Below are positions 18,801 through 42,774 of a stretch of 45,821 nucleotides of DNA, one piece after another. The stretch lies in NCBI GenBank assembly GCA_964395025.1, contig CAYMZP010000001.1, positions 1 to 45,821 of the forward strand, given 5' to 3'. The position numbers and the translations under genes are program-made. Positions within the stretch are counted from its first letter, which is position 1. Each line of letters begins with the position of its first letter. Origin of the DNA: an uncultured Candidatus Saccharibacteria bacterium (GTDB lineage: Bacteria; Patescibacteriota; Minisyncoccia; Phycocordibacterales; Phycocordibacteraceae). The notes under the pieces were generated by a model that did no database searches, was not told the DNA's origin, and saw only the letters and a program-made list of their open reading frames with translations.

Positions 18801-18929
18801 TTTGCCATTATGTTTGGCCTGGCATTTTCTACCGTCCTCACACTTGTGATGATTCCTATCTTGTACTATCGCTGGCCCGGCAAAGAAGTAAGAGAAACAT
18901 TCCAAGAAAAAACATCCTACGGTTCCTGA
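15828..18929 (+). CDS. RND efflux permease (AcrB/AcrD/AcrF family)
   Basis: 1033 aa with a 12-TM topology and two large extracytoplasmic loops. The N-terminus FFLNKHHFTVLVAVVLSLAGTYA is typical of the ACR_tran family. Confidence 0.9.
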   Translation: MTRLWSFFLNKHHFTVLVAVVLSLAGTYAVLAIPKESSPEVQIPVGIVTTILPGASAEDVERLVTNPIEDRVLGIERVSKVTSSSGNGVSVITVEFDASADIPTSIDLLKDEVDSARPELPQEAEDPVVSDVNFADQPIILGSVAGNVQPAELTELARELQDELERVQGVSSVSLSGIRAREVSVVIEQTKLAQYGLSVSDVTNAIRLSGIASPIGSLVTNDVQYAVRLEAGITTTDEVASIALPSKGTPLYLRDVAGVIDGLEDPVTLSRVSVNGTPSSPALTFSVFKSRGGNIVETGDAVKERLAELGETTLAGTSVVFSYDAADEVKHDLTKLTRVGLETVALVMIMLLLTLGWRESLAAALSIPLSFLIAFIGLYASGNTINFVSLFSLILAIGILVDTGIVVVEAIHTRLIAYGNKRQAALATIKEYAWPLTAGTLTTVAVFVPLFFLSGIMGKFVASIPFTVIFVLLASIFVALALIPLFSLYIVRPTLSSFEARQERYNERAKEWYQGILRGLLSDKKAQNRVLWAMGFLFIVALALPATGAVQSVFFPNEDMDFIYVEVEKPYGTALTATDLSVREVEELLYTDTDIESFVSEVGSGNAFSASPRSGSHVGNVTINLKEDRKETSAEIVSRLREQLSRIPSARITVSEPASGPPSGAPFVATFFGNDLALLGQTVDRAAQLLEETGGAVNINTSTRDSGPEFVIDLDGAKAAAQGISPALVAETLRTALFGTTATTIRTPETDIDVTVKLDLNASYRDPSETTHATIDTVRTLLIPGMAGSVPLSTIADIRFEAAESAIRHEDGTRIATLTSEITGNPIAVSNEFERHMNDMGVPSGITMKIGGETEDVNRSFAEMGIALLAGAALMLAILVLEFNSFRHALYLLLTIPLSLIGVMVGLLVTGQPLSFSSMLGVIALAGVIINHAIILMDSIARIGKEHSGTLQDIVIEASASRFRPIILTTATTVVGMIPLSFASALWGPLAFAIMFGLAFSTVLTLVMIPILYYRWPGKEVRETFQEKTSYGS

Positions 18930-19945
18930 GGCCTGAATTGAATCGTGAGTTCCGGTAGTGCTACAGGTGAAGTAGGAATATCGTCTGTAGGGACAGCCAT
19001 GAGACTCATAGAAACGGTGTCGAGAGACTCTTCAGTAGCAACTTTGGCACTACGAGCAGTTGGTGCTTCTTCGGTAAATGTCATAACTACCTCTTGATCG
19101 GTTTTCCGTTTAACTACATCCGCAAAACGAAGTGTAGCAATAGTGCGCGTAGCTTCTTCAGCAATACGTACATAGGTTTCTACTGAAAATGTGTCATCTT
19201 CGGAGAACGCATCTACATCCGTAAGTGCTGTGGACAAAGAGCGTGCGAGTGTTTCCGCGGTTTCTTCGGTTTCTCTAGTCCACACTCCATCTTCAATTAC
19301 CGTGAGAAGCTGTTCAACTCGTTCGTATGCACTAGCACGCGCTTCTGTAACATTCTCTTCCGCAACTGACGGAACATAGGTATCTATACGTTCAATAATA
19401 TCTTCTATTGCACGTGCATGTTCTTCAGGAAGACTCGCAGCCTCTGCAGACAGAAGTGTACGGTGTGCTACACGGACGGTCTGTGCTTGTTTTGAAGCAA
19501 TGGGTGAAAGCGACACTGCGTGGGTAAATTCTTTTTCTGCTGAATCAACTGCATATGTCGCTCGTTCTTCAGAGAGTGAACCGGTCACTGCGAGAACTTG
19601 TGCTTCGCGCAACCGTTCTTCACCTAACGCAATGCGGAACTGTGCTTCGTTTTCTTTTCCAATAACAACCAAAGACAGGAGTGGCTCCGTAAGGGTACGT
19701 TTAACGCCATAGAGCGTGTCGCCGGGAATGGCATGACGTGCAGCATACGCACCCACTCCTCCACTACTAATGCACACGAGAAGAAGCACCGCGAAAACGG
19801 AGACGTAGCTCTGCCACAACACGCGCACATGTGTCGCCGTATGTGCGGGACGCATAAGAATCTGAGCACGCATGTATGCACGCTCCGCATCAGTGAGCGA
19901 GTACTCAGGTGTTTTTTTAATAGTGAGAAAATCGTTTGGGTTCAT
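18917..19945 (-). CDS. Anti-sigma-factor-like membrane protein (DUF5667 domain)
   Basis: Short cytoplasmic N-terminus, a single TM helix, then PGDTLYGVKRTLTE and a helical repeat ectodomain. There is a 4-nt overlap with the upstream ECF sigma gene. Confidence 0.6.
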   Translation of the reverse strand: MNPNDFLTIKKTPEYSLTDAERAYMRAQILMRPAHTATHVRVLWQSYVSVFAVLLLVCISSGGVGAYAARHAIPGDTLYGVKRTLTEPLLSLVVIGKENEAQFRIALGEERLREAQVLAVTGSLSEERATYAVDSAEKEFTHAVSLSPIASKQAQTVRVAHRTLLSAEAASLPEEHARAIEDIIERIDTYVPSVAEENVTEARASAYERVEQLLTVIEDGVWTRETEETAETLARSLSTALTDVDAFSEDDTFSVETYVRIAEEATRTIATLRFADVVKRKTDQEVVMTFTEEAPTARSAKVATEESLDTVSMSLMAVPTDDIPTSPVALPELTIQFRPQEP

Positions 19946-20448
19946 GGTGCGGGGGATGTATAGAGTGCACGAAGCTTGGTGAGTCCACGCTTCACGCGAA
20001 CTGAAATGGTGTTGGGTTTTTCGCCAAGAAGCTCAGCTACCTCTTGTATGGGATATCCTTCCACCAAATGCAGGGAAAGCGTAGTCCGATATGGTTCAGA
20101 GACCTGCGAAAGTGCACGAAGTGCACCGCGTGCCTCCGCATGTATTTCAGCGTCTGCGGAAACACCAACTGCTTCAAATGTGCCTTCTGGCAAATCACTC
20201 TCTACTACTGCTTTCTTTTTTTTGTAGTGGTCTTTTATGAGGTTGCGGGTCACCGTAAAAAGAAAGGCTGAGCCGTTTTCTATGCGTGTCTTTGGGCTTT
20301 GCATCCGTTCAAACACACGGGTAAACGCTTCTTGCGTGAGGTCTTTTGCCTCCTCACGAGAACTCGTTTTTGCGTAACAGAGACGAAATACCGCATCGGC
20401 ATGCGTGTCATAGAGCGCCACAAAATCGGTGTGGATCTGTTCTGTCAT
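19942..20448 (-). CDS. ECF-type RNA polymerase sigma-70 family factor
   Basis: Region 2 is DAVFRLCYAKTSSREEAKDLTQEAF. Region 4 HTH is YPIQEVAELLGEKPNTISVRVKRGLTKLR. The start is taken at the MTEQIH Met. Confidence 0.85.
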   Translation of the reverse strand: MTEQIHTDFVALYDTHADAVFRLCYAKTSSREEAKDLTQEAFTRVFERMQSPKTRIENGSAFLFTVTRNLIKDHYKKKKAVVESDLPEGTFEAVGVSADAEIHAEARGALRALSQVSEPYRTTLSLHLVEGYPIQEVAELLGEKPNTISVRVKRGLTKLRALYTSPAP

Positions 20449-20476
20449 AGTAGACGAAGGAGTGGCATATACATGA

Positions 20477-20974
20477 CTATGGCAACAGAGAACCCACGAG
20501 CGCACCGATGAGTATGGCAAGTCCTCCAATTATCACCATACGCGTTATGGAGCGGAAAAACGGCATGCGGGTGACGGCCGCCGCAGCCATACCAAGGAGC
20601 GCAAGCGCTAGCAATGCGCTCATAATAGAAAGTGGTAGTGCCTGCGTCGGCACGAAAAACATATACGGCGCGAGCGGAATAAATCCGGATACAAAATATG
20701 ACACGAACATAATCCCTGAAGCGATGTACGAATGCGTACCGCTTGTAGACTGTTGATTTTCGTATTCTTCGGCAGAAGACTCGGAGAGGAAGCTTCCCGC
20801 AGTCATAGAAAGTGCTTCTACAAAAATCAAAATGACCCCCGTTACGAAAATGTCTCCTCGTTCCATTCCTGCAATAGCAACTCCTGAAAGGAGTCCTACC
20901 GTAGAGACCAAGCTATCCTCTACGCCAAAAATGAAGTTGCGCACATACGCAGCGGGAAATACAAAGCGCTTCAT
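20477..20974 (-). CDS. VIT1/CCC1 family iron/manganese transporter
   Basis: FGVEDSLVSTVGLLSGVA motif and 5 TM helices. Confidence 0.8.
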   Translation of the reverse strand: MKRFVFPAAYVRNFIFGVEDSLVSTVGLLSGVAIAGMERGDIFVTGVILIFVEALSMTAGSFLSESSAEEYENQQSTSGTHSYIASGIMFVSYFVSGFIPLAPYMFFVPTQALPLSIMSALLALALLGMAAAAVTRMPFFRSITRMVIIGGLAILIGALVGSLLP

Positions 20975-21006: not shown

Positions 21007-22191
21007 CTAGGTACTCGACTTCTTCCTACGCAGACTCTTTTTACGCTTTAACACGGTTTCTGCTTCATCAAGTTCCTCTTCAAACGAAGCCAAGAACTCG
21101 AGCTCTTCTTTGGTCAAAATGCGGTCTTCGCTTGCGTTTCTGATTTTTCGTACGTGCGTATTCAGGTCTTTTTTGAGAATATCGAAGACACGACGTGTCA
21201 CATCTCGCGCTTCGTTTTCACGTGCATGTATTTCGCGCGTCATTCTAAATAAGCGGTCAAAGCCTATCGCATGCAATACACCAAGGAGTCCAATACTTGC
21301 AAGTATCACCAGTGCGAAGAGTGCAAGATGTCCCACACCGAGCCATCCGAACATCCCTTTCCAGTCAGTACGTACTTCAAGTGGAAGGGTGTCTGACTCT
21401 GGACTAACACTTCCGTCTTCAGTAGTTACGCGCAAGCGAAGTGTGTATGAGCCAGCAGGAAGATGCTTTGCAAGCACAAATGCAAAGTCCCCCTCAGGTG
21501 CGCTGTATGCATATTCCGTATTGAGCAAGGAACCTCCTTGATATACCAAGAGCTCTACTACTCCTCTACCGTACGTGGTCCCACGAAGCGCAACCAAATC
21601 GTTGATACCCACTTCAGCGTCATAGTAGGTCACTTGTGGTGGTGTAGTAGCAGGAACGGTTGTATCCACCTCTTCATGTGGTGCTACCTCTACCGTTTCG
21701 GGTGCTTGTGGTTCGACCGGTGTAGTAAGGGATTCGGTAATAGTGTATGACGCGCTTCCTGTGCTTGTTAAAATGCTGGTCCCTTGTCCATCATTTGCCA
21801 ACACAGATGCATCAGAGAACGTCAGCGTGCCACTTCCCTCGCTCCGTGGCACAAGAACAAAACTAGCCACTTTTGCACCAGCACCTTGATACCCAGGATT
21901 CATCACGACACCCTCTAGCATAACCGTGTTTCCAGAAACCGTAGGTTGCTGTACCCAGAAATTCACCACCGACCCGACAGAAGAAGCAGACACAACGGTA
22001 AAACGTTCACTCGGCACCTGTATCTGTGCAGAAATAGCGTTCAGTGCTTGGTCTGTGCTTGCGGCATATACCGTTACCGTAAACGGCTTCCCTATGGTTT
22101 GCGTACCTGAAGAAGGAGAAAAATATAATGTTGCCGCACTCGCAGAGAACGGCATAGCAAAAATGAGTACAAGAAAAAGTACTATTTTCAT
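21007..22191 (-). CDS. Cohesin-like domain surface protein with a C-terminal TM anchor and a cytoplasmic coiled-coil tail
   Basis: Signal peptide MKIVLFLVLIFAMPFSASA. The cohesin-like N-domain reads LYFSPSSGTQTIGKPFTVTVYA...NFWVQQPTVSGNTVMLEGVV...LANDGQGTSI. An Ig-like middle domain, a TM helix and an ~85-aa charged tail follow. The ATG at 22191 gives an ATGA overlap with the upstream gene. Confidence 0.7.
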   Translation of the reverse strand: MKIVLFLVLIFAMPFSASAATLYFSPSSGTQTIGKPFTVTVYAASTDQALNAISAQIQVPSERFTVVSASSVGSVVNFWVQQPTVSGNTVMLEGVVMNPGYQGAGAKVASFVLVPRSEGSGTLTFSDASVLANDGQGTSILTSTGSASYTITESLTTPVEPQAPETVEVAPHEEVDTTVPATTPPQVTYYDAEVGINDLVALRGTTYGRGVVELLVYQGGSLLNTEYAYSAPEGDFAFVLAKHLPAGSYTLRLRVTTEDGSVSPESDTLPLEVRTDWKGMFGWLGVGHLALFALVILASIGLLGVLHAIGFDRLFRMTREIHARENEARDVTRRVFDILKKDLNTHVRKIRNASEDRILTKEELEFLASFEEELDEAETVLKRKKSLRRKKSST

Positions 22192-23027
22192 ACACGACGT
22201 TTCCTCCAGTATACCCGCCATACCACAACGCAAAGTATAAGGAGTGCAAAAACGAGTGCTGATACGACCGCAATTCCTGTATGACGACCGGCAACACGCG
22301 TCTCGATAAAGTTCCCAGCGTAATCATATGCACGCACTGAAAGTGGTACGAGCCCAAACCGGTCACGAACTGCATATAGATATCCTGTACGCTCCCACGC
22401 ACTTCTTCCTTCCTGCACTTCAAAATACGCAATGCCACTGTCTGCATCAAAACTGGAGATAATGAGTGACGGACGACCTTCAAGCACTCGTGTGTCACGG
22501 AACGATTGTACGTCAATGTACTCCGGCGGAGTGCGGTCAGTAGTAAATGTCCCTACGCGCTCTTCGGTCTGCATCAGCTCATCAGAAAGGGCAATGCGCG
22601 TACCTTTCCCATCATTCATGTATAGTGCAGCATCTGCAACGCGCACTTCTTCTACCGGTTTGTTTGTCTCAAAAGACAAGAGTGCACCAGGACCATGCAA
22701 TCCTTCTCCCGAACGGGCACTTCCTGTAAACCCTCCAGGAATAATACCGGCAAAGCGAATGGTGTTACCGGACGCGGTAGGTGTTTCGAGCCAATACGAG
22801 ATGATACTTCCACCCGTAAATACGGTAGGCACTGAGACGTCATCAGGAAGTGTTAGCGTTCCCTCAACAGCATTTATAGCAGTAGTTGTAGCTACGAGAT
22901 ATACAGAAACGCGAGATGTGGTATCACTACGCATTTCTTCCAATAAAAAAGTGGCGTGTACAAAAGAAGGCACACAGAGGAAACAGAGGAGAGAGAGTAA
23001 GAAAGTACGCATACTTAGTTGGTCCAA
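22188..23027 (-). CDS. Cohesin-like domain surface protein with a C-terminal TM anchor (paralog of the 21007-22191 N-domain)
   Basis: Has a signal peptide. INAVEGTLTLP...SYWLETPTASGNTIRFAGIIPGGFTG...MNDGKGTRI aligns with the neighbouring cohesin-like domain. The C-terminal TM helix ends in WRKRRV. Confidence 0.6.
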   Translation of the reverse strand: MDQLSMRTFLLSLLCFLCVPSFVHATFLLEEMRSDTTSRVSVYLVATTTAINAVEGTLTLPDDVSVPTVFTGGSIISYWLETPTASGNTIRFAGIIPGGFTGSARSGEGLHGPGALLSFETNKPVEEVRVADAALYMNDGKGTRIALSDELMQTEERVGTFTTDRTPPEYIDVQSFRDTRVLEGRPSLIISSFDADSGIAYFEVQEGRSAWERTGYLYAVRDRFGLVPLSVRAYDYAGNFIETRVAGRHTGIAVVSALVFALLILCVVVWRVYWRKRRV

Positions 23028-24103
23028 TGATACGCCATGATAGAAAAGTCCACGATATCAATCTTCCCGTCTCCAGAAAGACGCTCAGACTCATCCACGA
23101 CGAGCACCGATGAAAGCGGACGCTGATACCAATACGCGGCAATAGAAAAGTCTAAAATATTTACTCGGTTGTCTTTATTTAAATCCCCTTTCATGAGGAC
23201 CACTGAGGTCGCACCTGTTTGCGACACTATAAAATCCACCACCTTACTTTCAGCAGACACACGGGCTGAAAGTGCCGTTTGCGACTGTGCAGTATGGTCG
23301 CCGACCTCAAGAATGGAAGAGTTGAACTCTAAAAGGTACGTACCATTAGGGTCACTCGCTGCTGAGAAAAAGTGAGGTTCTTCTGAGTTCACTTCAAGTG
23401 TCACGGCACCAAACGGAACACTTTGTCCAAAAAACCGTACCGTATCTCCGCGACGCACGTCACGAGAAGAAACTGAAAGCGTAGGTGCTAAAAATATGCC
23501 TCCCACTTCCGTAGAAGACCCCTCGGTAAGAGTGATAGGAATAGAAAAGAGTGCGGAGCGACTTCCGCTTGCGTCCACACCCACAAGCGCAAGTGTATGA
23601 CTTCCCTCTGGAATGGAGAGTGTAATAGTAAATCGAGAATCAGGACCTGCTTCAGAGCGAACGACGAGTCTGTTATTTCTGTAGAGAAGCACACCACTTC
23701 GTGGATATGCATTTCCGGATAGTGTGACGGTTGCACGGTCACCTCCACCCCCTCCTCCACCACCTCCACCTCCGCCTCCGCCGCTACCTCCAGACGGTAG
23801 ATTCACTTCACTCATATCCGTAACACTGTCGCATCCCGGGTCGTTTGGATAATCGGTTAAAGAATCTCCGTCGTTATCTAAGCCGTCGCTACAAATGTAA
23901 ACTGGGTCGGTTTCATCATCATCAAGCACCGAAGAACAGCCCGGATCATCTGGGTAATCAGTAAGAGAATCTCCGTCATTATCGTTCCCATCAAGACATT
24001 CAGGAATAAAAACGGTCACCGATACACTCGTGGTATCCGCGTATAGGACGAGCGGTATAAGCACCGCACTCACCAACAAGAGGATGGCGCCGAAGCGCAT
24101 CAT
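23015..24103 (-). CDS. Secreted dockerin-domain protein with two CxDGxDNDGDSLTDYPxDPGC modules and a poly-Gly linker
   Basis: The C-terminus carries a duplicated dockerin Ca-loop/helix: GDLNKDNRVNILDFSIAAYWY and GDGKIDIVDFSIMAYHW. The N-terminus has a signal peptide, the two Cys-bounded Asp-rich modules and a long poly-Gly linker (GGSGGGGGGGGGGGGGG). Confidence 0.8.
   Translation of the reverse strand: MMRFGAILLLVSAVLIPLVLYADTTSVSVTVFIPECLDGNDNDGDSLTDYPDDPGCSSVLDDDETDPVYICSDGLDNDGDSLTDYPNDPGCDSVTDMSEVNLPSGGSGGGGGGGGGGGGGGDRATVTLSGNAYPRSGVLLYRNNRLVVRSEAGPDSRFTITLSIPEGSHTLALVGVDASGSRSALFSIPITLTEGSSTEVGGIFLAPTLSVSSRDVRRGDTVRFFGQSVPFGAVTLEVNSEEPHFFSAASDPNGTYLLEFNSSILEVGDHTAQSQTALSARVSAESKVVDFIVSQTGATSVVLMKGDLNKDNRVNILDFSIAAYWYQRPLSSVLVVDESERLSGDGKIDIVDFSIMAYHWTN
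23741..23797 (-). repeat. Coding (GGN)n tract (poly-Gly linker)
   Basis: The plus strand reads ACCTCCACCCCCTCCTCCACCACCTCCACCTCCGCCTCCGCCGCTACCTCC. Confidence 0.8.
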
Positions 24104-24993
24104 GTCCGTGCTACACGATTACGTTTTTTGAGTACCAAGAATGCAAAGATGCCAAGTATAAGCACAACGAGTATAGCGCCACCTCCTATGAGATACGGCA
24201 TAGCTTTCTCAAAAAATGTTTTTTCGTACACATTAAAAACGGTACGGAGTTCTCCCACCATACTGTTTCCTTCGTATACTTTTACATGTCCCCAGTATTC
24301 TCCAGGTGCAATGTAAATATCAAGTGGGAACACAACCTCAGAACCACCCTCAGAAAAAGCAGGGATTCTTTTTACTTCTCTATTTTCAGCATACGCGAGA
24401 CGGATTTCACCAAACTTGTTAAAGAGTTCGAATGTCACAGCGTCAGGTCCAGAGGGTACGTTACCGGTATTAGCAATATCAACTCGAGCACGCGGGTCTT
24501 CTCCTTCAGTAATATCTAGAATGTCTATTTGCTTGAGCGAAAACTCGCTTACGACTCCTTCACCAACTACCAAATCAAGCGTTACGAGTCCGCCAAGTGC
24601 AATCGCTACTTCGCCACCCTCATCAGCACGCTCGGGTACTGCCGTAATACGTATCTCTCCCCCATACACACCAAACGGTGCATCGTCGGGAACGTCTACC
24701 CGAATAACAAGGGGAAACTGTTGTACCCCTTTTGGAATGGTAATCGGACGACCTTGCGGGAAGGAAATCCAGGATGCGATTTCAGAGTTGACTTCGAGTT
24801 CTATCGGAATGTCTCTATCAGGGACTCCTTGTACCAAGTACACAATTCGCTCAAGTGAGATACCGCGCACTAACCGGTCTTCTTCAATAAGAGGCGGAGA
24901 AACACCAAAGCCTGCAAGCGCTACGAATGGGCCAGCAAAAAGTAGTGCAAAAAGCGTGAGGCCTAGTGCCGATGACGTGAAGAAAGTGTTCAT
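24100..24993 (-). CDS. Secreted two-Ig-like-domain protein with a C-terminal TM anchor (architecture reminiscent of DUF916/DUF3324 CscA-type proteins)
   Basis: Signal peptide, then two beta-rich domains (FGVSPPLIEE...GVYGGEIRITAV and DIANTGNVPSG...GEYWGHVKVY), then a TM helix plus KKRNRVART. There is a 4-nt overlap with the dockerin gene. Confidence 0.6.
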   Translation of the reverse strand: MNTFFTSSALGLTLFALLFAGPFVALAGFGVSPPLIEEDRLVRGISLERIVYLVQGVPDRDIPIELEVNSEIASWISFPQGRPITIPKGVQQFPLVIRVDVPDDAPFGVYGGEIRITAVPERADEGGEVAIALGGLVTLDLVVGEGVVSEFSLKQIDILDITEGEDPRARVDIANTGNVPSGPDAVTFELFNKFGEIRLAYAENREVKRIPAFSEGGSEVVFPLDIYIAPGEYWGHVKVYEGNSMVGELRTVFNVYEKTFFEKAMPYLIGGGAILVVLILGIFAFLVLKKRNRVART

Positions 24994-25015
24994 ACGCGCA
25001 AGCCTCCAATCATTC

Positions 25016-25951
25016 CTAGTCGGTCACTGCGGTGAAGGTGTTCTGTCCTGTATAGCTTCCCGGCGTCTGTCCGTTTGGAATACCAATACCCCAGAGCACG
25101 TCGTCGGTGACCGGAGTGGTGGTTGAGGTAGGTTTCGCCAACACCGTTTCAACAGTTACTGGAGTATTCGTGAGGTCAGTACCTGCACCGTACGTGAAGG
25201 AGTTGAGACTATACTCCTGCTGTTCTGCTTGGAGCGTGCTTCCTGCACATCCCGGGTAGTCCGTACACATATCATCACCTGAAAGCTCTGTATCAAGCGC
25301 ATTATTTCCAGTGTTTGTAATGGTCGTCGTTTGATTAGTTGCAGCTGTGTCAGCGTTTGCAGCTACAGAGCCAAATGCGATGGAAGAAGTGACGTTCAGT
25401 GCGTTCAGCGTATTCACTTCTATCGTTTGAGCAGTGTTTGTAGCAACATGAGAATCTGTTCCGTCCGTAGACGTTGCAGCAAACGACCAGATAGACGATG
25501 CGGATGCACCTGAGTCAGTTGGTGTTGCGGTATACCAGATACGGAAACCGCAGTCGTACTGTACGGACGTATCCCCGCCACCATCGCACGTATTGCCGGT
25601 CGTTGTTGCCACACACACAGAGGTGTAACAGGAGTTGCCGTTATACGAGCAACCACTACCACTATTTGCTGGAGAAGCGAGATAAAACTTTGAAGTAACC
25701 GACGTAATAGTGCTACAGCCGTTTGCATCAGTAACCGTTACCGTGCCAGTTGCGTTCACATAGGTATTCTCAGTCAATGTGACGTCTGAACCCCCGTGGA
25801 AACTTGCGGCAGACGTAACGGGAGCCGAGTTCCCAACAGTCACTGACGTAGAAGCAGTGTCTGCAAGCACAATGCTATACGCACAAAGCCCTGCAATCAC
25901 TAAAATAGTTGCAGGGATACATAGGTACGCAGGAACGCGGTAAACATTCAT
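25016..25951 (-). CDS. Secreted beta-rich protein, small paralog of the C-terminal two-domain module of the 1195-aa protein
   Basis: N-terminal hydrophobic signal or anchor. The segments VTLTENTYVNATGTVTVTDANG, IEVNTLNALNVTSSIAFGSV...ITNTGNNALD and C-terminal DDVLWGIGIPNGQTPGSYTGQNTFTAVTD all align with the large neighbour. Confidence 0.6.
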   Translation of the reverse strand: MNVYRVPAYLCIPATILVIAGLCAYSIVLADTASTSVTVGNSAPVTSAASFHGGSDVTLTENTYVNATGTVTVTDANGCSTITSVTSKFYLASPANSGSGCSYNGNSCYTSVCVATTTGNTCDGGGDTSVQYDCGFRIWYTATPTDSGASASSIWSFAATSTDGTDSHVATNTAQTIEVNTLNALNVTSSIAFGSVAANADTAATNQTTTITNTGNNALDTELSGDDMCTDYPGCAGSTLQAEQQEYSLNSFTYGAGTDLTNTPVTVETVLAKPTSTTTPVTDDVLWGIGIPNGQTPGSYTGQNTFTAVTD

Positions 25952-26024
25952 GGGTAAGTATTTAATGCTCTATATACACTAAAGTATACGGGCTTCATGC
26001 CTCACAAACAGGTGACTATCCCCA

Positions 26025-29000
26025 CTAGATGCCAGTGACTGCAGTGAAAGTATTAGTGCCAGTATATGAACCGGCGGGAGTGCCGTTTGGTACTCCCAGT
26101 CCCCAAAACACATCGTCACTCAAACTTCCTGCTTCAGAGTATATAAGCACTATGAGTCCTTGAAGGCCTAGCGCACCTGCACCGGCAACTATTGAAGAGC
26201 CAGAACCACGTCCACCACCTCCACCTCCGCCTCCACCGCCTCCATACTCGCCACCTATACCACCAGCACCACCACCACCTGCATCGCGTCCACCTCCGCC
26301 ACCTCCTCCTCCGCCCCCACCACTACCTACACTAGTCCACTCACTACCATCACCACCAGGGTCACCTGCCGTTGCTTGACCTCCTTCGTCTACAGAACCA
26401 GTACCAGCAGAACCTCCTGCACCACCACTTCCATTATTCCCTGCACCTCCTGTACCGCCATTACTACCGTTTGACGCGCCTCCAACAGAACCAGCTGTGC
26501 CTATGACACCATCTCCAGACGCACCTCCTGCACCTCCGCCTCCGCCTCCGCCAGATCCGCCGTCATTCCCTCCTGTACTTTGACCATTACCACCCGCTCC
26601 GCCTGAGTAAAGTGTGTCACCGACACCACTGCCACTTGCACCACCTCCACCGCCCGTAGTACCAGATCCACCACTTCCTCCTTTTGCAAGAAGCGTGCCC
26701 ATGCTTTCAAACCACGTATCGCCTCCAGCACTCCCTATACCACCCCCACTTCCAATGGAAATATCTATCGTATCGCTCGGCGTCAACGAATGGTTAGTGA
26801 GAATAGATATGGCACCACCACCTCCACCACCTCCACTATTACCACCGTTAGAACCATCACCATTTGCACCATTTGCACCCCCACCTCCCCCACCAATTAC
26901 AAAAATACTATTGTCACTTGAGTTCCAGTCTACCGGCACTTCCCACGTAGTTCCAGAAGTGAGAATCGTCATGACTTCTTCTCCCGTATCAGAAGTTCTC
27001 TGTGGAAGGGTAAGGTTGAAGGCGGTTGGCGTACCCGAAAGTGCGGTACCTCCACTTGAATAGGTAAATGCTGAGGCGCTATATTTTTGTTGCGATGCAA
27101 GAATGGAACCACTACCTCCGTCAGTCATAGCAATGCCAGAGAGTTGTGGGTCCATGTCCACATTTCCCGTGTTGGTTACCGTCGTCGATTGGTTTGTCGT
27201 ACCCGTATCGGTGTTCGCGTTCACTGTGCCATACGCAATCGTAGAAGTAACGTCGAGCGCCAAGAGAGATGCTACTTCTATGGTATCTACCGCCGGTGTT
27301 CCTGTTGCAGCACCGTCATAGGCGTGCATCTCGCAACTCCATGTGTCTGCAGAGTACGCACTGCCCGCGTCGGTGGCGTCTGCATAGTATTGAATGGGAA
27401 ATGTGCAGGTATACGTTTCGGAGTTACCAGCACCTCCCGAAGGAATGCACTCGCTGTCTCCGTAGAGTCGGTATAGGTTGTTATTGTCACTCGCGGAAGA
27501 TGTGCCAATAGATGTGCGATAGAAAAAAGCACCTACTCGCTCTATATCTTCATACCCGTTTGTATCCGTAGCTGTCCCTGAGCAGATCACATTTTTTGTG
27601 GTGTTTTCAGTGAGCGTTACAGAAACTGCACCAGAATCTACTGAAACTCCGGACACAATAGGGAGCGCGTTACTTCCCACTGCTCCTGTAGTAAGTTGCG
27701 GAATAACACTATACGCATCTAGTTCAGTTCCGTCGCTTTTCACCATGCGAAAACAATAGTCGGTTTCTGCCGGTGCACCGTTATCCGTCAAAGAAAAATC
27801 CCACTTTGCATCTTGATTGTCTGGCACATATGCTTCCGAATTACTGAAGGTATTCAATTCCTCGTACGTTTGATTCACAATCGTGTGTCCACTATGTGTT
27901 GGGTCACTGCCATTTGCTGTAAGCGCGTCTCCATCGGCGGGAGTGCCGTTGTCTTTATATGCAATTGCTGTTGCACCTGTCACATCCACATACGTTTCTC
28001 CTGAAAAGCCTATGTCGCAGGAACCTGACATGGGAGAAAATTGGAGTTTGAATGAATGTTCATCAATACCAGCACCCTCATCTATGTGCATGAGCATACG
28101 TAAACGCACATCATCTCCACCTGAGGCAAGCTCCGCAGGAGTGTCTTGTGCTGCAAGTGCTGAACCGACGTTAGTACTATTTGCGCCTTCGAAAAAGCGG
28201 TACGCAGATTGTGTGTACACGGCTAAATCTCTCACCGTATTCCCGTACAAGTCATTCCCTGTTGTTGCCGTAACATCATGGTAAAGCGCAAACAAACGTT
28301 GCGCAGAAGAGTTATCAATAGAAACAGCGCGGTGGTTGCGGTCGGTATCACTCGAGAGAAGATTGTCTATACTCCACGTACTTCCATCATCAGTAGACAC
28401 CGAGTAATACACATCGTTTGCCGTTGCCGACGCACCACGCGAATACACTACGTACAAATCACCGGTGTTTTGGTCTATGCCGATAGAAGAATCGGTAATG
28501 GCAGATGTGCCGTCCGTTGTGTTTGGCCAGGCGTCGGTTAGCTCTGCCCACGAGCTTCCGTTATATCGTGCCCCCCGCACCTCACTGGTATTTGTGGTGC
28601 CTGGTACATGTACATACGAAACGTAGAGATTGCTCGTAGTTAGATCTACCGTTCCCGATAATGCATGCGTATACGTGGTGCTGTCCGTAACACTCGAAGC
28701 GAGCGTCGTGAAGTTTGAAGACCAGCTATTTGCTGAATCGTCATACACTTTATATTCAACAACGTGTGCAGTGATGTCGTGAGAAACAAGCATCATGTCT
28801 CCCGCATCGTGGGTGGCATTGTCAGGGAGCGGTAACAGTACAATCGCATGCACAGCGTCTACGTCTGCCGTATCTCCGTCCCACGGGTTACTACCGGCGG
28901 AAGCCCAATTAGCGGTATTGGTACAATCGCTTCCATTTGGACATTTGTGTGCAAAGGTTGCCGGTGCGGTTGGTGCTGTTTCGTCTACCGTGATTGCATA

Positions 29001-29612
29001 CACATCACCATCAGTACCAACCGATATAGCAACATCATTATTGTTCGTGAGTGAACCCTGTGCTCCCGCAGAAGCAATGGTTACTTCGGTCGCAAGCGAT
29101 GTGTCATTCGAGGTATCAAACCGGTCATACATGATGTCGTCTGCAGTGCTGAAATATGCAATGTGTACATATGTCCCACTATTTCCTGGAGTCCATTGGT
29201 CATACCAAACACCCATAGAAACCCAAGTGCCGGCATCTATATCAGTTCCCGTTCCGCTCCAGCTCGTACCTCCGTCCGTTGACTTCTGATACGCAACGTC
29301 ATTGTCAGAATCTATATAAAATACGTAACAGACTGTGTCAGATGTACACACGACATTTTTCCCTGATTTTTGGTGACGAAGAATGGTGGTGTTGACGGTA
29401 GTGTCTATGGCTTGTTCAGCTGCTCGCGCACGATTGTACTGAAACGAATCTATAACAGATCCATCTTGTAATGCAAGCCACAGCTCATCCACCACATTGG
29501 CACGAACCGCATACTCCGCTACAAGCGCAATAGGTACTTGCGAAGCAAGAAAAGCACAGAGACATACAAGCGCGAGAGTATGGCTACGTAAAAAGCGAAA
29601 AAACCGTCTCAT
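26025..29612 (-). CDS. Giant secreted surface protein: BNR/Asp-box beta-propeller-like N-region, Ig-like domains and a glycine-rich inserted module
   Basis: Signal peptide. Asp-box repeats STDGGTSW and STDDGSTW. The central beta domains are shared with the 311-aa paralog. Residues ~880-1160 are Gly-rich (SGTTWEVP...VIGGGGGG...GLIVLIYS). The C-terminus is DDVFWGLGVPNGTPAGSYTGTNTFTAVTGI. Confidence 0.75.
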   Translation of the reverse strand: MRRFFRFLRSHTLALVCLCAFLASQVPIALVAEYAVRANVVDELWLALQDGSVIDSFQYNRARAAEQAIDTTVNTTILRHQKSGKNVVCTSDTVCYVFYIDSDNDVAYQKSTDGGTSWSGTGTDIDAGTWVSMGVWYDQWTPGNSGTYVHIAYFSTADDIMYDRFDTSNDTSLATEVTIASAGAQGSLTNNNDVAISVGTDGDVYAITVDETAPTAPATFAHKCPNGSDCTNTANWASAGSNPWDGDTADVDAVHAIVLLPLPDNATHDAGDMMLVSHDITAHVVEYKVYDDSANSWSSNFTTLASSVTDSTTYTHALSGTVDLTTSNLYVSYVHVPGTTNTSEVRGARYNGSSWAELTDAWPNTTDGTSAITDSSIGIDQNTGDLYVVYSRGASATANDVYYSVSTDDGSTWSIDNLLSSDTDRNHRAVSIDNSSAQRLFALYHDVTATTGNDLYGNTVRDLAVYTQSAYRFFEGANSTNVGSALAAQDTPAELASGGDDVRLRMLMHIDEGAGIDEHSFKLQFSPMSGSCDIGFSGETYVDVTGATAIAYKDNGTPADGDALTANGSDPTHSGHTIVNQTYEELNTFSNSEAYVPDNQDAKWDFSLTDNGAPAETDYCFRMVKSDGTELDAYSVIPQLTTGAVGSNALPIVSGVSVDSGAVSVTLTENTTKNVICSGTATDTNGYEDIERVGAFFYRTSIGTSSASDNNNLYRLYGDSECIPSGGAGNSETYTCTFPIQYYADATDAGSAYSADTWSCEMHAYDGAATGTPAVDTIEVASLLALDVTSTIAYGTVNANTDTGTTNQSTTVTNTGNVDMDPQLSGIAMTDGGSGSILASQQKYSASAFTYSSGGTALSGTPTAFNLTLPQRTSDTGEEVMTILTSGTTWEVPVDWNSSDNSIFVIGGGGGGANGANGDGSNGGNSGGGGGGGAISILTNHSLTPSDTIDISIGSGGGIGSAGGDTWFESMGTLLAKGGSGGSGTTGGGGGASGSGVGDTLYSGGAGGNGQSTGGNDGGSGGGGGGGAGGASGDGVIGTAGSVGGASNGSNGGTGGAGNNGSGGAGGSAGTGSVDEGGQATAGDPGGDGSEWTSVGSGGGGGGGGGGGRDAGGGGAGGIGGEYGGGGGGGGGGGRGSGSSIVAGAGALGLQGLIVLIYSEAGSLSDDVFWGLGVPNGTPAGSYTGTNTFTAVTGI
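26133..26975 (-). repeat. Glycine-rich coding module with long (GGN)n tracts
   Basis: Runs of CCACC/CCGCC/CCTCC on the plus strand (for example 26210-26330) encode G8-G12 runs. Confidence 0.75.
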
Positions 29613-29615
29613 ATA

Positions 29616-30602
29616 TTACTCCGAAGAAAAGAACTCGTACGAAATAGAAGCAACACGACGCATAAAATCTTCCGCATGTGCTTTGTTTTCATAAAAAGAT
29701 ACATCAGGCTTCCCCTCTATGAGCACCGTTATGAGATACGGGCGATCCTTGAGATACACAATGCCTGAATCGGAGTACACATTCAGGTCAATGTTCTCTC
29801 CATACTTATGCGGAAACGGCACACGCGTGCCAATGTCATGCGTAAGGAAGTCATCATATGATGACGCATCTAGCCAAGAAAGAATCATGCTGGAGTGTTC
29901 TCGCGTGAGGAAACTCGAGGTGTAGAGAGTTCGGAAAAACCGAGAATATTCTTTTGCACTCATGTGCCCGTCTGCGGAAAACAAGTCCTCAAGACCCAAG
30001 TCGTTCACTACTTGATCTACATCGTCTTGGTGCAGATTGCGTTTTAAAATGTAATACGCTGTGTTGTCCGACTCAGAGAGAAGCGCTTCAAGGAGTGTTT
30101 CCAAACTGAAGCGTGTACCAATAGGATATTCCGAGAGCGCATTCTCTTTGGAACCTGAGCGTCCATCGCGGTCTCCCTCAAGCAGTACGAGTTCGTTATG
30201 CAGATGCCACTCTCCATCCTCAATTTTTTTCATCACCGCAAGTGCGAGAGGCAGTTTTGCAAGTGACGCAGGAAAAATCTGATTCTCTGGGTGTATTGAA
30301 ACGTTCGCACCGGTATTAAGAAACTCAAGATATATAGAAACCCTTCCTTCAGTAAATGAGTCAGCAAGCTCGTTAAGTGTCGTTCGTAGCGGCTGAATGG
30401 TCACGAGAAAATCTTCTTGGGAAATAAAACTCCGTGCAGGGTCAATGAGCGGATAGGGGTTTTTGAATGAGTGCGTAGCATATGGACTGTTATGTAGTAT
30501 GTGCAGTACCCCCAGAGCTCCAGCAATACCCCAACCAAGCCAGAACAACATGTGTGGCATATACGTCACGATGCTTTTTTTCTTACGCGACGTGGTGCTC
30601 AT
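29616..30602 (-). CDS. Membrane-anchored serine hydrolase, class A beta-lactamase fold (Beta-lactamase2-like)
   Basis: N-terminal TM helix, SxxK (PASLAKLP), SDN (SESDNTAY) and a KTG-like HKYGE motif. Confidence 0.7.
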   Translation of the reverse strand: MSTTSRKKKSIVTYMPHMLFWLGWGIAGALGVLHILHNSPYATHSFKNPYPLIDPARSFISQEDFLVTIQPLRTTLNELADSFTEGRVSIYLEFLNTGANVSIHPENQIFPASLAKLPLALAVMKKIEDGEWHLHNELVLLEGDRDGRSGSKENALSEYPIGTRFSLETLLEALLSESDNTAYYILKRNLHQDDVDQVVNDLGLEDLFSADGHMSAKEYSRFFRTLYTSSFLTREHSSMILSWLDASSYDDFLTHDIGTRVPFPHKYGENIDLNVYSDSGIVYLKDRPYLITVLIEGKPDVSFYENKAHAEDFMRRVASISYEFFSSE

Positions 30603-32050
30603 ATGTTAATGATGTTTATTTGACAGGTAGTGAAAGAGTCGCGTCCATCGACGTCTTTCCGATAGATAACGGGAATACTCATTGAACCGCGCTGAGCCCC
30701 AGGAAGTGTGGTGATGTGTACCCGAAGAGAGTCTGTGCGCTCAGCACGCAAAAAACGATACGCATCATTTTCTTCAAACGTAAGGTCTATGCCATATGGC
30801 ATGCTACCGAGCTCCACGATTTCCTGACCCGTACTTGTGCCGTGTGTAAGCGACAACACAAACTCTCGAGATTCAGCGTCAGATACATCTATCACTTCCG
30901 GAAAGACACTACACAAGTGCGTTGCATTTGGATCAATAGTAAACACGCGCTCGTACGCACGAGGTGCGGGAAGTGCAGGAGTTTCTGTACTAATTTCTAC
31001 AATCACTGGCTCAACAGCTTCAGGAATAGTCACAAGTGTGAGTGATACTTCGGTAAGCGTAACGGTTACATCTTTCTCTGCCGACTCAGTAACTAGACGA
31101 ACTACGAGCCTTTCTAATTCGTTGGTATCACTAAGTTCAAGAGGAAAGGTGTGCACCCCTTCTTCCAGAGAAACAGAATCAATGTATGTCCAGACAGTAC
31201 CGTCTGTGGTGTACGAAAGCGCAACAACCGTTCCACCGCCTAACCCTAGAGGCTCTTCAATAAATACACTTTCGCCGAGTACGTCTCCGATAGTAGGGAC
31301 AACATCAACAGGTGGCTCTGGTGTGTGTTCAATGAGGGGGGAGTGTGCCTCGCTTACCGTTTCTTCAGATACATCATCAGGTGTTTCGTTGGTCTGTGCA
31401 AAAACAGACGGAATACCAAAAAACCAACGACTCACCGTTTCCGTGTTTTCTTCAAGAACTGCTTCCTCTATAGGAACACTCTCTTCTTCGGATGTGGGTA
31501 GCGGAGGAGGAGGTGAGGATACTTCTTCCGTAGACATTTCTTGATCTGCAACCACCTCTTCAGTAGTCTCAACGCCTGCAACTTCACCTTCTACTCCAGA
31601 ATCAACAGAAACAGGTTCTTCCAAAATAGGCGCACGTTCACTCTGAGGAAGTTCAGGTACGAGGGGTGTTGTTTCAGGCGTACGAGAAACCGAGAAAGAA
31701 AGGGCTAGTGTTGCGCTTGAAACCTCTTCTGGTTGCGAAAGAGCAAGTGCTGCAAAAGAACAAAACCATGTTTGTCCTAGTGATTTGGTACTCGGTAAGC
31801 CCGTATCAGTATCCCAATCGCCTGTACAGAGCACTGGCTCAAGAACCGTAGTATTGGCGAACGTGTGCCATTGTCTATACGCGAACGGAGCAAACGCAAT
31901 AAGAATTCCAGCGACTGTCACAATAACGGCAATTCGTACAAGCATGCGTATTGCATATGTCTTTTCAGCCATGCTTGGTCCTACATCAAAAGGACCCGCC
32001 GGAACATATCGTTCGCGCCGCTTCATATGTACTAAGTATACGGCGCGCAC
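30599..32050 (-). CDS. Hypothetical N-terminally anchored protein with an acidic/Pro-rich linker
   Basis: 483 aa. TM helix IRMLVRIAVIVTVAGILIAFAPF, a long E/V/S/T/P-rich linker, then a beta-rich C-terminal half. It is the first gene of the operon. The start could be 32050, 32026 or 31972. Confidence 0.55.
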   Translation of the reverse strand: MRAVYLVHMKRRERYVPAGPFDVGPSMAEKTYAIRMLVRIAVIVTVAGILIAFAPFAYRQWHTFANTTVLEPVLCTGDWDTDTGLPSTKSLGQTWFCSFAALALSQPEEVSSATLALSFSVSRTPETTPLVPELPQSERAPILEEPVSVDSGVEGEVAGVETTEEVVADQEMSTEEVSSPPPPLPTSEEESVPIEEAVLEENTETVSRWFFGIPSVFAQTNETPDDVSEETVSEAHSPLIEHTPEPPVDVVPTIGDVLGESVFIEEPLGLGGGTVVALSYTTDGTVWTYIDSVSLEEGVHTFPLELSDTNELERLVVRLVTESAEKDVTVTLTEVSLTLVTIPEAVEPVIVEISTETPALPAPRAYERVFTIDPNATHLCSVFPEVIDVSDAESREFVLSLTHGTSTGQEIVELGSMPYGIDLTFEENDAYRFLRAERTDSLRVHITTLPGAQRGSMSIPVIYRKDVDGRDSFTTCQINIINI

Positions 32051-42408: not shown

Positions 42409-42465
42409 TTGCATATGGTCCTTTTGCTCGGTACCATACATACACAATCGAATACGTATCAAGAA

Positions 42466-42594
42466 GCAGGGAGAGCACTGGCTCAATGAACTGCTAGCAA
42501 CGTGCCGAAACGGTAACGTGCTCCATCCAGCCCTTCGGGGGAGATGCTTCTATCTAACGAATCGTCCCGCCTGAAGCGGGGCGATTCGTTGTTT
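42466..42594 (+). promoter_or_regulatory. SAM-I (S-box) riboswitch aptamer (42466-42547) with a terminator expression platform (42556-42594)
   Basis: GUAUCAAGAAGCAGGGAGAGCACUGGCUCAAUGAACUGCUAGCAAC...GUGCUCCAUCCAGC...GAGAUGC follows the SAM-I consensus. It is followed by AACGAATCG(T)CCCGC-ctga-GCGGGGCGATTCGTT-GTTT, upstream of metK. Confidence 0.8.
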
Positions 42595-42774
42595 AGAAAT
42601 TCAAGGAGCGAAGCGACTATGTAATTTCTTACCCCGCCACACACACATCAATACGCACAGCACCTAAATCCGATAGAAGACGCAAAAACGTGTAATGTAT
42701 TGTGACTTCAAGTTCATTTATGTGTGTCGGGTGCAAGATTTTCTAAACCCGCAGACTCGTTAACAAAATCTAGC

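Follow-up and report, generated by a model that had tools for sequence, protein, structure and literature searches.

The window (the whole 45,821-nucleotide stretch of DNA that was analysed) carries a gene cluster that apparently encodes a previously undescribed cell-surface protein assembly of tiny Patescibacteria, without plant-degrading enzymes. In the reading that we consider probable, it is a conserved surface module of Paceibacteria-type Patescibacteria in which a cohesin-dockerin pair tethers one secreted protein (G6), with the products of genes G3 to G5 as a second sub-module. A literature search found no paper describing the cluster, in line with the initial annotation, which had not recognized the combination, and homologue searches bore out its placement of the organism among the Patescibacteria.

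Eight minus-strand ORFs, G1 to G8, were present in the ORF list where they had been placed initially, and the tight junctions claimed between them were exact when rechecked against the ORF coordinates. G1 and G2 overlap by 4 nt (30599-30602), G2 and G3 are separated by 3 nt (29613-29615), G3 and G4 by 73 nt (25952-26024), and G4 and G5 by 22 nt (24994-25015). G5 and G6 again overlap by 4 nt (24100-24103), G6 and G7 by 13 nt (23015-23027; alternatively a 2-nt gap, with the G7 start at the ATG at 23012), and G7 and G8 meet in an ATGA (22188-22191). The G8 ORF spans 21007-22233, with an ATG start at 22191. Genes and features are as follows:

30599-32050, minus: G1, N-anchored protein with acidic linker
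29616-30602, minus: G2, N-anchored serine hydrolase of Beta-lactamase2 fold (predicted)
30255-30266, minus: G2 motif SLAK (SxxK)
30063-30071, minus: G2 motif SDN
29799-29810, minus: G2 motif HKYG (KxG)
26025-29612, minus: G3, "large" paralogue, 1195 aa
29259-29282 and 28374-28397, minus: G3 Asp-boxes in the variable N-part
27723-28247, minus: G3 conserved middle region
26967-27722, minus: G3 module of G4 type, two beta-sandwiches
26133-26966, minus: G3 Gly-rich insert, window-specific
26028-26132, minus: G3 conserved last strands
25016-25951, minus: G4, "small" paralogue, 311 aa
25439-25819 and 25019-25399, minus: G4 Cys-rich beta-sandwich domains (AF2 model)
24100-24993, minus: G5, two Ig-like domains and TM helix
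24634-24912 and 24223-24600, minus: G5 Ig-like domains, after the signal peptide
24124-24210, minus: G5 C-terminal TM helix and basic tail
23015-24103, minus: G6, dockerin protein
23936-23998 and 23831-23893, minus: G6 acidic double-disulfide repeats
23741-23782, minus: G6 poly-Gly, followed by an Ig-like region
23018-23191, minus: G6 C-terminal dockerin
22188-23027, minus: G7, cohesin-family protein with C-terminal TM
about 22578-22940, minus: G7 cohesin-family domain, between signal peptide and Ig-like domain
22221-22277, minus: G7 C-terminal TM helix, short basic tail behind
21007-22191, minus: G8, cohesin-family protein with C-terminal TM
about 21742-22140, minus: G8 cohesin-family domain, after the signal peptide
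21337-21609, minus: G8 Big_13-like Ig domain
21265-21321, minus: G8 TM helix
21010-21264, minus: G8 conserved 85-aa cytoplasmic tail

A hydropathy scan showed that each of the eight products has a hydrophobic segment near its N-terminus, as expected from the claim that each bears a signal peptide or TM segment (signal peptide calls are from hydropathy only), and that G5, G7 and G8 also have a C-terminal TM helix. Downstream of G8 the same strand continues with VIT1, an ECF sigma factor and DUF5667, so the end of the cluster is not demonstrated as an operon boundary; a promoter and terminator scan gave no signal delimiting the gene unit.

The eight genes had been taken as one unit; the conserved core proved to be six, G3 to G8, namely large, small, G5, dockerin protein and two cohesin proteins (41 distinct Patescibacteria loci). 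Their order recurs in close and distant relatives, so that the conserved synteny anticipated in the initial annotation was found, and it is held in dozens of loci at identities down to about 31%, with differing flanks. Of 24 loci, 9 have G2 immediately upstream of the large gene, and only 4 have a G1 homologue beside the cluster. G1 is thus an accessory, lineage-restricted member. Translation probably begins at the ATG at 32026 or 31972; a TM segment at aa 36-54 (hydropathy) is accompanied by an acidic Glu/Pro/Ser-rich linker and then a C-terminal domain without assigned family, and the protein had no match in Pfam or NCBIfam. G2 is likewise a lineage-restricted accessory, with a predicted serine hydrolase fold. 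The earlier Beta-lactamase2 call was borne out by PF13354 (E=3.8e-36); against the NCBIfam class A beta-lactamase model it scored 60 bits (cut-off 200), and its SxxK, SDN and KxG motifs are kept in seven homologues.

Evidence for the tether comes from G6, G7 and G8. After its signal peptide, G6 begins with a mature N-terminal strand (ADTTSVSVTV, 24011-24040), and it also has an NCBIfam repeat match (NF033662). The dockerin claimed at its C-terminus scored 21.5 bits against Pfam Dockerin_1, just below the cut-off of 22.9; the claim holds at family level, where the C-terminal profile matches solved dockerins (2y3n_B, E=3.4e-8; 2yik, 4fl4 and 1daq) and both Ca-loop repeats are conserved in 15 aligned homologues. 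G7 and G8 are paralogues, as proposed (28% identity over 169 aa, E=2e-10), and G7 matches the G8 homologue of another locus, L001 (E=3.7e-12), with family HMM matches in 36 loci. Their description as cohesin-like stood for the family only: PF00963 matches 21 of 34 cohesin-family members, those checked being above the Pfam threshold and in the N-terminal domain, whereas the Pfam cohesin search of the window's own G7 and G8 gave no match. The N-domain of G8 is 43% identical over 148 aa to protein P0020, residues 27-156 of which scored 38.4 bits on Pfam Cohesin (cut-off 24.1), and a profile of the cohesin domain against the PDB matched cohesins only, at marginal values (E=0.03-0.08). Since G7 and G8 fall below Pfam detection and G6 below the cut-off, the cohesin and dockerin assignments rest on family-level evidence.

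Co-occurrence was scored in those 41 distinct loci where 2.5 kb or more of sequence follows G5 downstream. Dockerin and cohesin genes were both present in 36 and both absent from 5, and no locus had only one of the two, counts that overstate independence because the loci are phylogenetically related. Of 32 loci, 30 had two cohesin genes. The protein in the G6 position ends in its own TM helix in three distinct loci that lack a dockerin (L007, L024 and L074/L075, the last two being duplicates and counted once). An N-terminal strand and a membrane anchor are constant in G6-position proteins even without a dockerin. At L017 a single protein unites the N-part of G6 and a TM helix with a dockerin (hhalign 90%, E=1.4e-6) and a region of cohesin plus Ig type (hhalign 97.8%, E=7e-13). 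Joint presence or absence, replacement by a TM helix and the L017 fusion together make membrane tethering of G6 the most likely role of the cohesin-dockerin pair.

The remaining core genes encode the candidate second sub-module. The description of G5 as a C-anchored protein with two Ig domains was confirmed by an AF2 model (pLDDT 92) and its C-terminal TM helix, and its family comprises 2202 representatives at E<=1e-3. Foldseek ranks 2-3 were WxLIP structures of E. faecium (9i1y and 9i25_C, E=1.6e-8) with TM-scores of only ~0.3; similar scores were reached by PapD-type chaperones, by RbmA and by ciliary Ig pairs, and the modelled likeness to WxLIP is not specific. Distant G5 relatives have an SH3b domain added after a TM hairpin; as domains of this type are frequently wall-binding, their presence would be consistent with a role in envelope anchoring.

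G3 and G4 are paralogues, as had been noted, with 41% identity over 261 aa (E=7e-33) and 70% over the final 30 aa. In G4, the signal peptide precedes a conserved strand at the mature N-terminus (ADTASTSVTVGN, 25829-25864) and two sandwiches, and the protein has the C-terminal motif WG.G.P..GSYTG.NTFTAV; in its AF2 model (pLDDT 89) residues 28-44 are coil, outside both sandwiches. None of the 138 matches in its family has a Pfam domain, and the family alignment has two invariant Trp (W155, W287). All 46 of 46 loci have a G4-family gene upstream, and at least two such genes occur in 34 of 35. G3 comprises five regions, starting with the signal peptide and a variable N-part that is not conserved across loci; its Gly-rich insert has a weak Gly_rich_2 match (E=0.007). 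The BNR repeats claimed for G3 were partly upheld, as two Asp-boxes are readable (STDGGTSW, STDDGSTW) but Pfam BNR gave no match.

According to our preferred reading, all parts would be exported by Sec. G7 and G8 would be type-I membrane proteins, each with one cohesin domain outside the membrane, into which the G6 dockerin would plug, presumably in a Ca2+-dependent manner, thereby holding G6 non-covalently at the cell membrane. Membrane-anchored, two-Ig G5 would form the second sub-module with G4 and G3, through predicted contacts of G5 with the latter two; the outward-facing part of G3 would be the lineage-variable element, here an Asp-box region and the Gly-rich insert. The N-terminal strand of G4 and G6 probably joins the sub-modules by insertion into G5 or a G4-type module. 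The scaffold for displaying adhesins proposed in the initial annotation survives in part: cohesin membrane proteins and one dockerin are there, but the adhesin-like G3 and G4 have none, G6 being the only dockerin carrier in the cluster. Display would therefore need a second, conjectural link, either G5 or the N-terminal strand common to G4 and G6. The cluster as a whole may serve host attachment or substrate binding.

A different use of that strand, which we consider unlikely, would be a donor-strand surface filament. G4 would polymerise via its N-terminal strand; G3, with an acceptor module but no free N-terminal strand, would be the tip-capping adhesin; the G6 strand would end the fibre, its dockerin fastening the fibre to the G7/G8 cohesins; and G5 would be a membrane-bound, PapD-like holder. 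The motif AD[TS]xx[TV]SVTV is indeed common to the mature N-termini of G4 and G6 in ~20 loci, in the G4 model this stretch is the coil outside the sandwiches, the equivalent stretch of G3 is internal and not conserved, and strand and anchor persist in G6-position proteins after dockerin loss. Foldseek matches include FimH, CfaE, CsuE and AggA for G4 and FimC, CfaA and CsuC for G5. However, the G4 matches have E-values of only ~1e-4 and TM-scores in the range 0.25-0.34, and two-sandwich proteins of generic type, VPS26 among them, rank as high; the cluster has no usher-like or sortase-like gene, and the common motif may instead be a processing or binding signal.

That G3, G4 and G5 are very divergent true homologues of the wall-binding WxL/Csc cluster of Firmicutes, with cohesin-dockerin added later, seems to us decidedly improbable. 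Such clusters occur with WxLIP in Lactobacillales and Listeria (PMC10599100, PMC9772566, PMC1534035). Their logic matches the one here, being defined by a small protein that is the shared module only, a large one with this module C-terminal behind variable binding domains, and a third with signal peptide, two Ig domains and TM helix (PMC10599100, PMC9772566). WxLIP structures also rank high for G5. Furthermore, the G4 end motif YTGxNTFTAV loosely resembles what we take to be the WxL C-terminal motif. Yet PF13731 matched none of 44 G4-family members, and the suggested DUF916 and DUF3324 had no Pfam match in the window's products or in 92 (41 + 51) G5-family members. G5 lacks a conserved NQIDKxxxYFDLK motif, W155 and W287 of G4 lie in different domains whereas WxL domain motifs occupy adjacent strands, and the top 50 Foldseek matches of G4 held no chain described as WxL, with WxLIP 9i1y at ranks 30 and 49.

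That the cluster is a minimal, cellulosome-like system with enzymatic function is very unlikely. The G3 Asp-box region would be a sialidase-type glycosidase and G2 a hydrolase of host or environmental polymers, as the two Asp-boxes, the catalytic-type motifs retained in G2 and human sialidase-1 as sole PDB sequence match of the G3 N-part might suggest. That match has E=0.89 and derives from the Asp-box alone, however, and a Pfam glycoside hydrolase/BNR search was without match. The absence of glycoside hydrolases from the window's cluster, asserted initially, was thus corroborated by Pfam, and none was found in six large paralogues scanned from other loci. These paralogues carry LamG, Kelch, DUF2341 or DUF285 domains. 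The N-part of G3 is not conserved, its place being taken elsewhere by LamG, Kelch or DUF285; there is no dockerin on G2 or G3, the cohesin proteins have one cohesin domain apiece, and a CBM was not found. Finally, the notion that unrelated genes merely look like an operon through the dense one-strand packing of small genomes, to which same-strand housekeeping neighbors and unmarked ends might point, is scarcely credible, being contradicted by the conserved six-gene order, the joint gain or loss of dockerin and cohesin genes and the L017 fusion.

Compared with known systems, the cluster recalls the surface anchoring of cellulosomes by cohesin-dockerin pairs on the anchoring scaffoldins of Clostridia. 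G6 is similarly secreted, with a C-terminal dockerin of two Ca-loop repeats, and cohesins sit on envelope-anchored proteins encoded adjacently, the pair forming a predicted non-covalent tether. In contrast to those scaffoldins, anchoring here is by a C-terminal TM helix and not by SLH domains or a sortase signal, there is one cohesin per anchor, the single dockerin protein carries neither an enzyme nor a CBM, the system belongs to a Patescibacterium, and the modules in the window score below Pfam model thresholds. With WxL/Csc clusters it shares an adjacent, exported trio of small, large and two-Ig TM proteins (G4, G3, G5) and WxLIP among the best structural matches of G5; it differs in that G3-G5 lack WxL, DUF916 or DUF3324 sequence signals, the module common to G3 and G4 has two beta-sandwiches instead of one WxL domain, there is no LPxTG protein, and dockerin and cohesin genes are additional. 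Chaperone-usher pili (Fim, CFA/I, Csu) offer a two-Ig partner (FimC, CfaA, CsuC; here G5), a two-domain adhesin-like subunit (FimH, CfaE, CsuE; here G4) and an N-terminal extension strand on subunits, but here there is no usher, G5 is membrane-anchored and the structural matches are weak. CPR bacteria, to our knowledge, have no outer membrane. A 2009 survey by Peer et al. reportedly recorded cohesin- and dockerin-like modules, without assigned function, in non-cellulosomal organisms; the window likewise pairs the two without a cellulosome, but with defined partners in a constant setting of six genes, where their joint loss, the replacement by a TM helix and the fusion protein point to membrane anchoring as their specific role.

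The eight minus-strand ORFs at window positions 21007-32050 were recovered by the ORF listing exactly at the coordinates of the initial annotation, and all of the gene junctions quoted there proved correct, with ATGA-type overlaps at three. From the upstream-most gene, they are:

Genes of the cluster (window coordinates)
G1, 30599-32050, minus strand, 483 aa, acidic-linker protein
G2, 29616-30602, minus strand, 328 aa, Beta-lactamase2-fold protein
G3, 26025-29612, minus strand, 1195 aa, large paralogue
G4, 25016-25951, minus strand, 311 aa, small paralogue
G5, 24100-24993, minus strand, 297 aa, two-Ig transmembrane (TM) protein
G6, 23015-24103, minus strand, 362 aa, dockerin protein
G7, 22188-23027, minus strand, 279 aa, cohesin-family protein
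G8, 21007-22191 (start codon ATG), minus strand, 394 aa, cohesin-family protein

In a Kyte-Doolittle scan, each of the eight products had a hydrophobic segment at its N-terminus, and G5, G7 and G8 also had a TM helix at the C-terminus. G1 opens the run, with TspO upstream on the opposite strand. Downstream of G8, VIT1, an ECF sigma factor and an anti-sigma-like DUF5667 protein (18917-20974) begin only 32 nt past the gene and continue on the same strand, so the transcript may run on past G8; a consensus-based promoter/terminator scan was uninformative on operon limits, since promoter-like sites were fewer than in shuffles and a clear terminator was absent. The sigma/DUF5667 pair stays close to the cluster, in differing placement, in three related loci (L001, L004 and L006), and the three genes were rejected as cluster members because their position is inconsistent among these loci. 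An AcrB-type RND transporter with a HlyD-type partner (14281-18929) is also a neighbour of the cluster in L001 and L004; Patescibacteria are thought to possess a single membrane. Elsewhere in the window, the gene for S-adenosylmethionine synthetase (42724-43827) is preceded by a SAM riboswitch (42453-42550; 54 bits). A DsbA-like thioredoxin protein is encoded at 6336-7112 and may be relevant to the disulfides of the Cys-rich exported proteins (12 Cys in G3, 10 in G4 and 4 in G6).

Related loci were collected by scanning genomes with the G5 family (21 loci) and then metagenomes (54 more). The genome-scan loci came from Paceibacterota, Lloyd-, Staskawicz- and Spechtbacteria MAGs, along with MAGs titled "uncultured Candidatus Saccharibacteria bacterium". 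All ORFs were searched with HMMs built here, and duplicate loci were then removed. A G4-family gene precedes G5 in 46/46 loci with enough upstream sequence, and two or more G4-family genes, a large and a small paralogue, occur in 34 of 35. Downstream, a dockerin protein followed by cohesin proteins was found in 36 of the 41 loci with at least 2.5 kb of sequence past G5, and two cohesin genes in 30 of 32. Conserved synteny within Patescibacteria, as anticipated by the initial annotation, was thus evident in close and distant relatives, the same gene order recurring on contigs whose G8 homologues share 52% and 34% identity with the window's. The eight genes had also been read as one unit. A conserved core of six (G3-G8) stands, but a fixed set of eight was not borne out: directly upstream of the core, G2 occurs in 9/24 loci and G1 in 4/24. 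Together these counts describe a six-gene core with accessories rather than a fixed eight-gene system. Upstream of the large paralogue the window carries G1 and G2 only; some relatives (L001:1-4534, L004:318-4997, L006:2701-7320 and L040) have there a 486-aa protein, a GT2-like gene and the Beta-lactamase2 gene, along with a methyltransferase and two small membrane proteins. A search of the literature on cohesin or dockerin in Patescibacteria, CPR and Parcubacteria found no description of the cluster, and the Microsyncoccus paper is silent on it.

The C-terminal module of G6 is, by sequence comparison, a dockerin. Residues 305-362 comprise two tandem segments of about 22 residues, each a Ca-binding loop plus helix (DLNKDNRVNILDFSIAAYW and LSGDGKIDIVDFSIMAYHW), whose Asp and Gly positions are invariant across 16 homologues. 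Direct scoring against Dockerin_1 (PF00404) left G6 just under threshold (21.5 bits against a gathering cut-off of 22.9), with the first repeat alone aligned, but a profile of the G6-family C-terminal module spanned both repeats in its matches to solved dockerins (2y3n_B, E=3.4e-8; 2yik, 2e-6; 4fl4, 2.3e-6; 1daq, 6.4e-6). Across 19 homologues the module has the consensus GDLNxDxRVNLxDFSI...LNGDGKxxLxDFSI, and the family alignment gives a constant build: signal peptide, ADTxxVTVTV strand, one or two acidic repeats, poly-Gly, Ig-like domains and the dockerin module. G6 itself has two acidic double-disulfide repeats (NCBIfam) and is the cluster's only dockerin protein, the remainder consisting of these repeats and Ig-like domains. 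PDB searches with G6, G7 and G8 as single sequences returned noise, the poly-Gly of G6 matching scFv linkers.

The window's own G7 and G8 gave no match to the Cohesin HMM (PF00963) at E<=0.1, so the cohesin-like domains claimed for them did not pass this direct check; we accept both proteins as cohesin-family members at the level of the family, on the homology of their relatives. G8 (aa 7-150) is 43% identical to aa 13-157 of the relative P0020, which scores 38.4 bits with Pfam Cohesin (aa 27-156); a second relative, P0053, scores 33.9 bits, both above the gathering score and within the N-terminal domain. PF00963 matches occur in 21 of 34 aligned G8-family members. The G8 homologues found were all from Patescibacteria MAGs, many of them with PF00963 plus Big_13, and one is titled "cohesin domain-containing protein" at NCBI. 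G7 is paralogous to G8 (E=2e-10), and PDB searches with the cohesin-domain profiles reached cohesin structures alone, marginally (E=0.03-0.08). The similarity is limited to one N-terminal region in each protein, beyond which lie Ig-like sequence, a TM helix and a tail; the Pfam-positive relatives likewise have one Cohesin stretch each. Past its TM helix, G8 ends in an 85-residue charged tail (aa 310-394; window 21010-21264) that is probably helical, with a pattern, R..LT.EE...L..F...L..AE, conserved throughout the family alignment. This tail may link the surface assembly to something cytoplasmic.

The distribution of the two modules among loci suggests what they do together. Of the 41 loci, 36 carry both dockerin and cohesin, none carries either one alone, and five carry neither; by our own arithmetic, Fisher testing of this split yields about 1e-6, although the loci are related and independence is therefore overstated. 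Measured against the window's G5, the five both-absent loci span a wide range of identity (57%, 46%, 35%, 31% and 32%), which we read as more than one loss. In three of the five (L007:5847-6803, L024:10919-12262 and L074:2077-3357, the last duplicated as L075), the protein at the G6 position retains the N-terminal strand and ends with its own TM helix and a basic tail. The L007 and L024 proteins also contain a CarboxypepD_reg-like domain. In a further locus (L017:10957-12432; JAUSKB010000011.1), a single 491-aa fusion joins the N-part of G6 (strand and two acidic repeats) to the dockerin (hhalign 90%, E=1.4e-6), then to cohesin plus Ig (97.8%, E=7e-13; Pfam Cohesin E=0.0067), and closes with a TM helix at its C-terminus; no separate cohesin genes follow it. 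Joint loss, replacement by a TM helix and fusion are well-known comparative hallmarks of two parts acting as a unit. On this comparative evidence, the simplest reading is that the cohesin-dockerin pair holds G6 at the membrane. The co-occurrence counts and the L017 fusion also indirectly favour a putative Ca2+-dependent binding of the dockerin to cohesin.

The other half of the core is built around a paralogous pair. G4 is 41% identical to residues 631-876 of G3, and its last 30 residues are 70% identical to G3 1164-1193, so that a complete G4 module lies within G3, split before its last strands by a 278-residue Gly-rich insert. This insert (aa 883-1160; window 26133-26966) sits inside the last beta-sandwich and has a weak match to Gly_rich_2 (PF21722, E=0.007); BLAST with low-complexity masking on found no match to it in the other loci. 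With its G-rich Gly codons read on the minus strand, the insert would account for the strongly negative GC skew seen between 25 and 28 kb. The N-part of G3 contains two Asp-boxes (SxDxGxTW; aa 111-118 and 406-413); the BNR assignment made for G3 found no HMM support, no window protein matching Pfam BNR (PF02012), and a sialidase reading of the N-part was unsupported (no Pfam BNR/sialidase match, sialidase-1 at E=0.89 only). The G4 model (pLDDT 89) has two beta-sandwiches, with the mature N-terminus (residues 28-44) as coil, and its structural matches were weak and generic (E~1e-4; VPS26, FimH, CfaE, CsuE and SdrD). PDB searches with the G4 and G5 family profiles found nothing. In the large paralogue the G4 module is always C-terminal and the N-part varies among loci: of six large paralogues scanned, one has LamG, DUF2341 and Kelch, another has DUF285, and none has a glycoside hydrolase.

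Among the accessory products, the assignment of G2 to Beta-lactamase2 (PF13354) was secure (E=3.8e-36; 124.9 bits against a cut-off of 22). With its SxxK (SLAK), SDN and KxG (HKYG) motifs kept in seven homologues, G2 appears to be an active-looking serine hydrolase. The NCBIfam class A beta-lactamase equivalog was not reached (60.2 bits, cut-off 200), so the assignment is to the fold family only; beyond such sub-threshold matches, the NCBIfam scan of the window proteins added only the acidic double-disulfide repeat.

The two halves of the core have one visible link, a mature N-terminal motif (AD[TS]xx[TV]SVTV) common to G4 and G6 in about 20 loci, which suggests strand insertion into a common acceptor. 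The initial annotation had proposed a scaffold displaying adhesin-like proteins. Its membrane anchoring stands, but connection to the adhesin-like proteins needs a second joint, which is hypothetical. In one version of strand insertion, a donor-strand filament, the cluster would encode a new kind of CPR surface filament, built by N-terminal strand complementation, with a cohesin-dockerin joint attaching it to the cell. The shaft would consist of G4, with G3 at the tip as a variable adhesin and G6 at the base, its dockerin inserted into the membrane cohesins of G7 and G8; G5 would act as a membrane-bound holder or chaperone. We regard such a filament as improbable. It would differ from a chaperone-usher pilus, with its outer-membrane usher and periplasmic PapD-family chaperone, in that the cluster has no usher-like or PapD Pfam match and that G5 is membrane-anchored. 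If true, it would be the first assigned cohesin-dockerin role beyond enzyme assembly, and episymbiotic Patescibacteria would have in it a candidate organelle for host attachment.

The proposed tethering of G6 by the cohesin-dockerin pair carries its own interest. To our knowledge, cohesin-dockerin modules are widespread outside cellulosomes, almost none of them with a known job. Here, a constant gene neighbourhood across a large uncultured group, together with joint loss, TM replacement and fusion, points to a concrete role as the detachable membrane anchor of a surface assembly. A life attached to other cells is assumed for Patescibacteria, whose mode of attachment and surface biology are largely unknown. 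Being conserved, fully extracytoplasmic and equipped with a hypervariable large subunit (lectin-like, Kelch or DUF285), the cluster is a reasonable candidate for part of that attachment machinery.

Three known systems come closest: cohesin-dockerin anchoring of cellulosomes, the uncharacterised "non-cellulosomal" cohesin/dockerin modules and the WxL/WxLIP clusters. The earlier view of a membrane-anchored assembly distinct from a cellulosome was largely right. A cellulosome has dockerin-bearing carbohydrate-active enzymes, whereas Pfam and NCBIfam found no glycoside hydrolase, polysaccharide lyase, carbohydrate esterase or CBM in the eight products; its scaffoldin has several cohesins, whereas G7 and G8 each have a single cohesin-family region. 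Compared with cellulosomal cohesin-dockerin anchoring, the modules and the idea of tethering are the same, while anchor, cargo and host differ. What is new is this familiar protein-protein joint in a conserved, enzyme-free context in Patescibacteria.

WxL clusters of Firmicutes combine a small protein consisting of the shared module only, a large protein with that module C-terminal, behind binding domains, and a signal-peptide/two-Ig/TM protein (PMC10599100, PMC9772566). G3, G4 and G5 show the same logic, a small/large pair with a common C-terminal module next to a signal-peptide/two-Ig/TM protein. In the G5 model (pLDDT 92), a long TM helix accompanies two Ig-like domains; Enterococcus faecium WxLIP ranked second and third among the model's structural matches (9i1y_A, E=1.6e-8; 9i25_C, 2.6e-8), at TM-scores of about 0.3, with PapD-type chaperones, RbmA and ciliary Ig pairs matching alike. 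In sequence, G5 lacks the WxLIP motif NQIDKxxxYFDLK, and the suggested DUF916 (PF06030) and DUF3324 (PF11797) domains matched neither G5 nor the 41+51 family members, distant relatives included, so membership was rejected at the sequence level. WxL homology of G4 and G3 was likewise rejected on PF13731 (0/44 G4-family members), on the Foldseek matches and on Trp placement, the invariant W155 and W287 of G4 sitting in separate domains, unlike the two WxL motifs on adjacent strands. The G5 family is large: of 1.84 billion cluster representatives (50% identity), 2202 fall within it at E<=1e-3, and 1069 still do so at E<=1e-10. In 21 of 51 distant relatives scanned (P0400, P0436 and P0452 among them), a second TM helix is followed by a bacterial SH3 domain, which such a TM hairpin would return to the cell exterior. 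SH3b domains are often cell-wall-binding, and their presence here would fit envelope anchoring. As G3, G4 and G5 fail every WxL-family sequence test and the G4 Trp residues lie in different domains, we treat the likeness as one of architecture rather than membership. By analogy, the parallel with the Firmicute WxL clusters suggests a recurrent surface-complex design in single-membrane bacteria.
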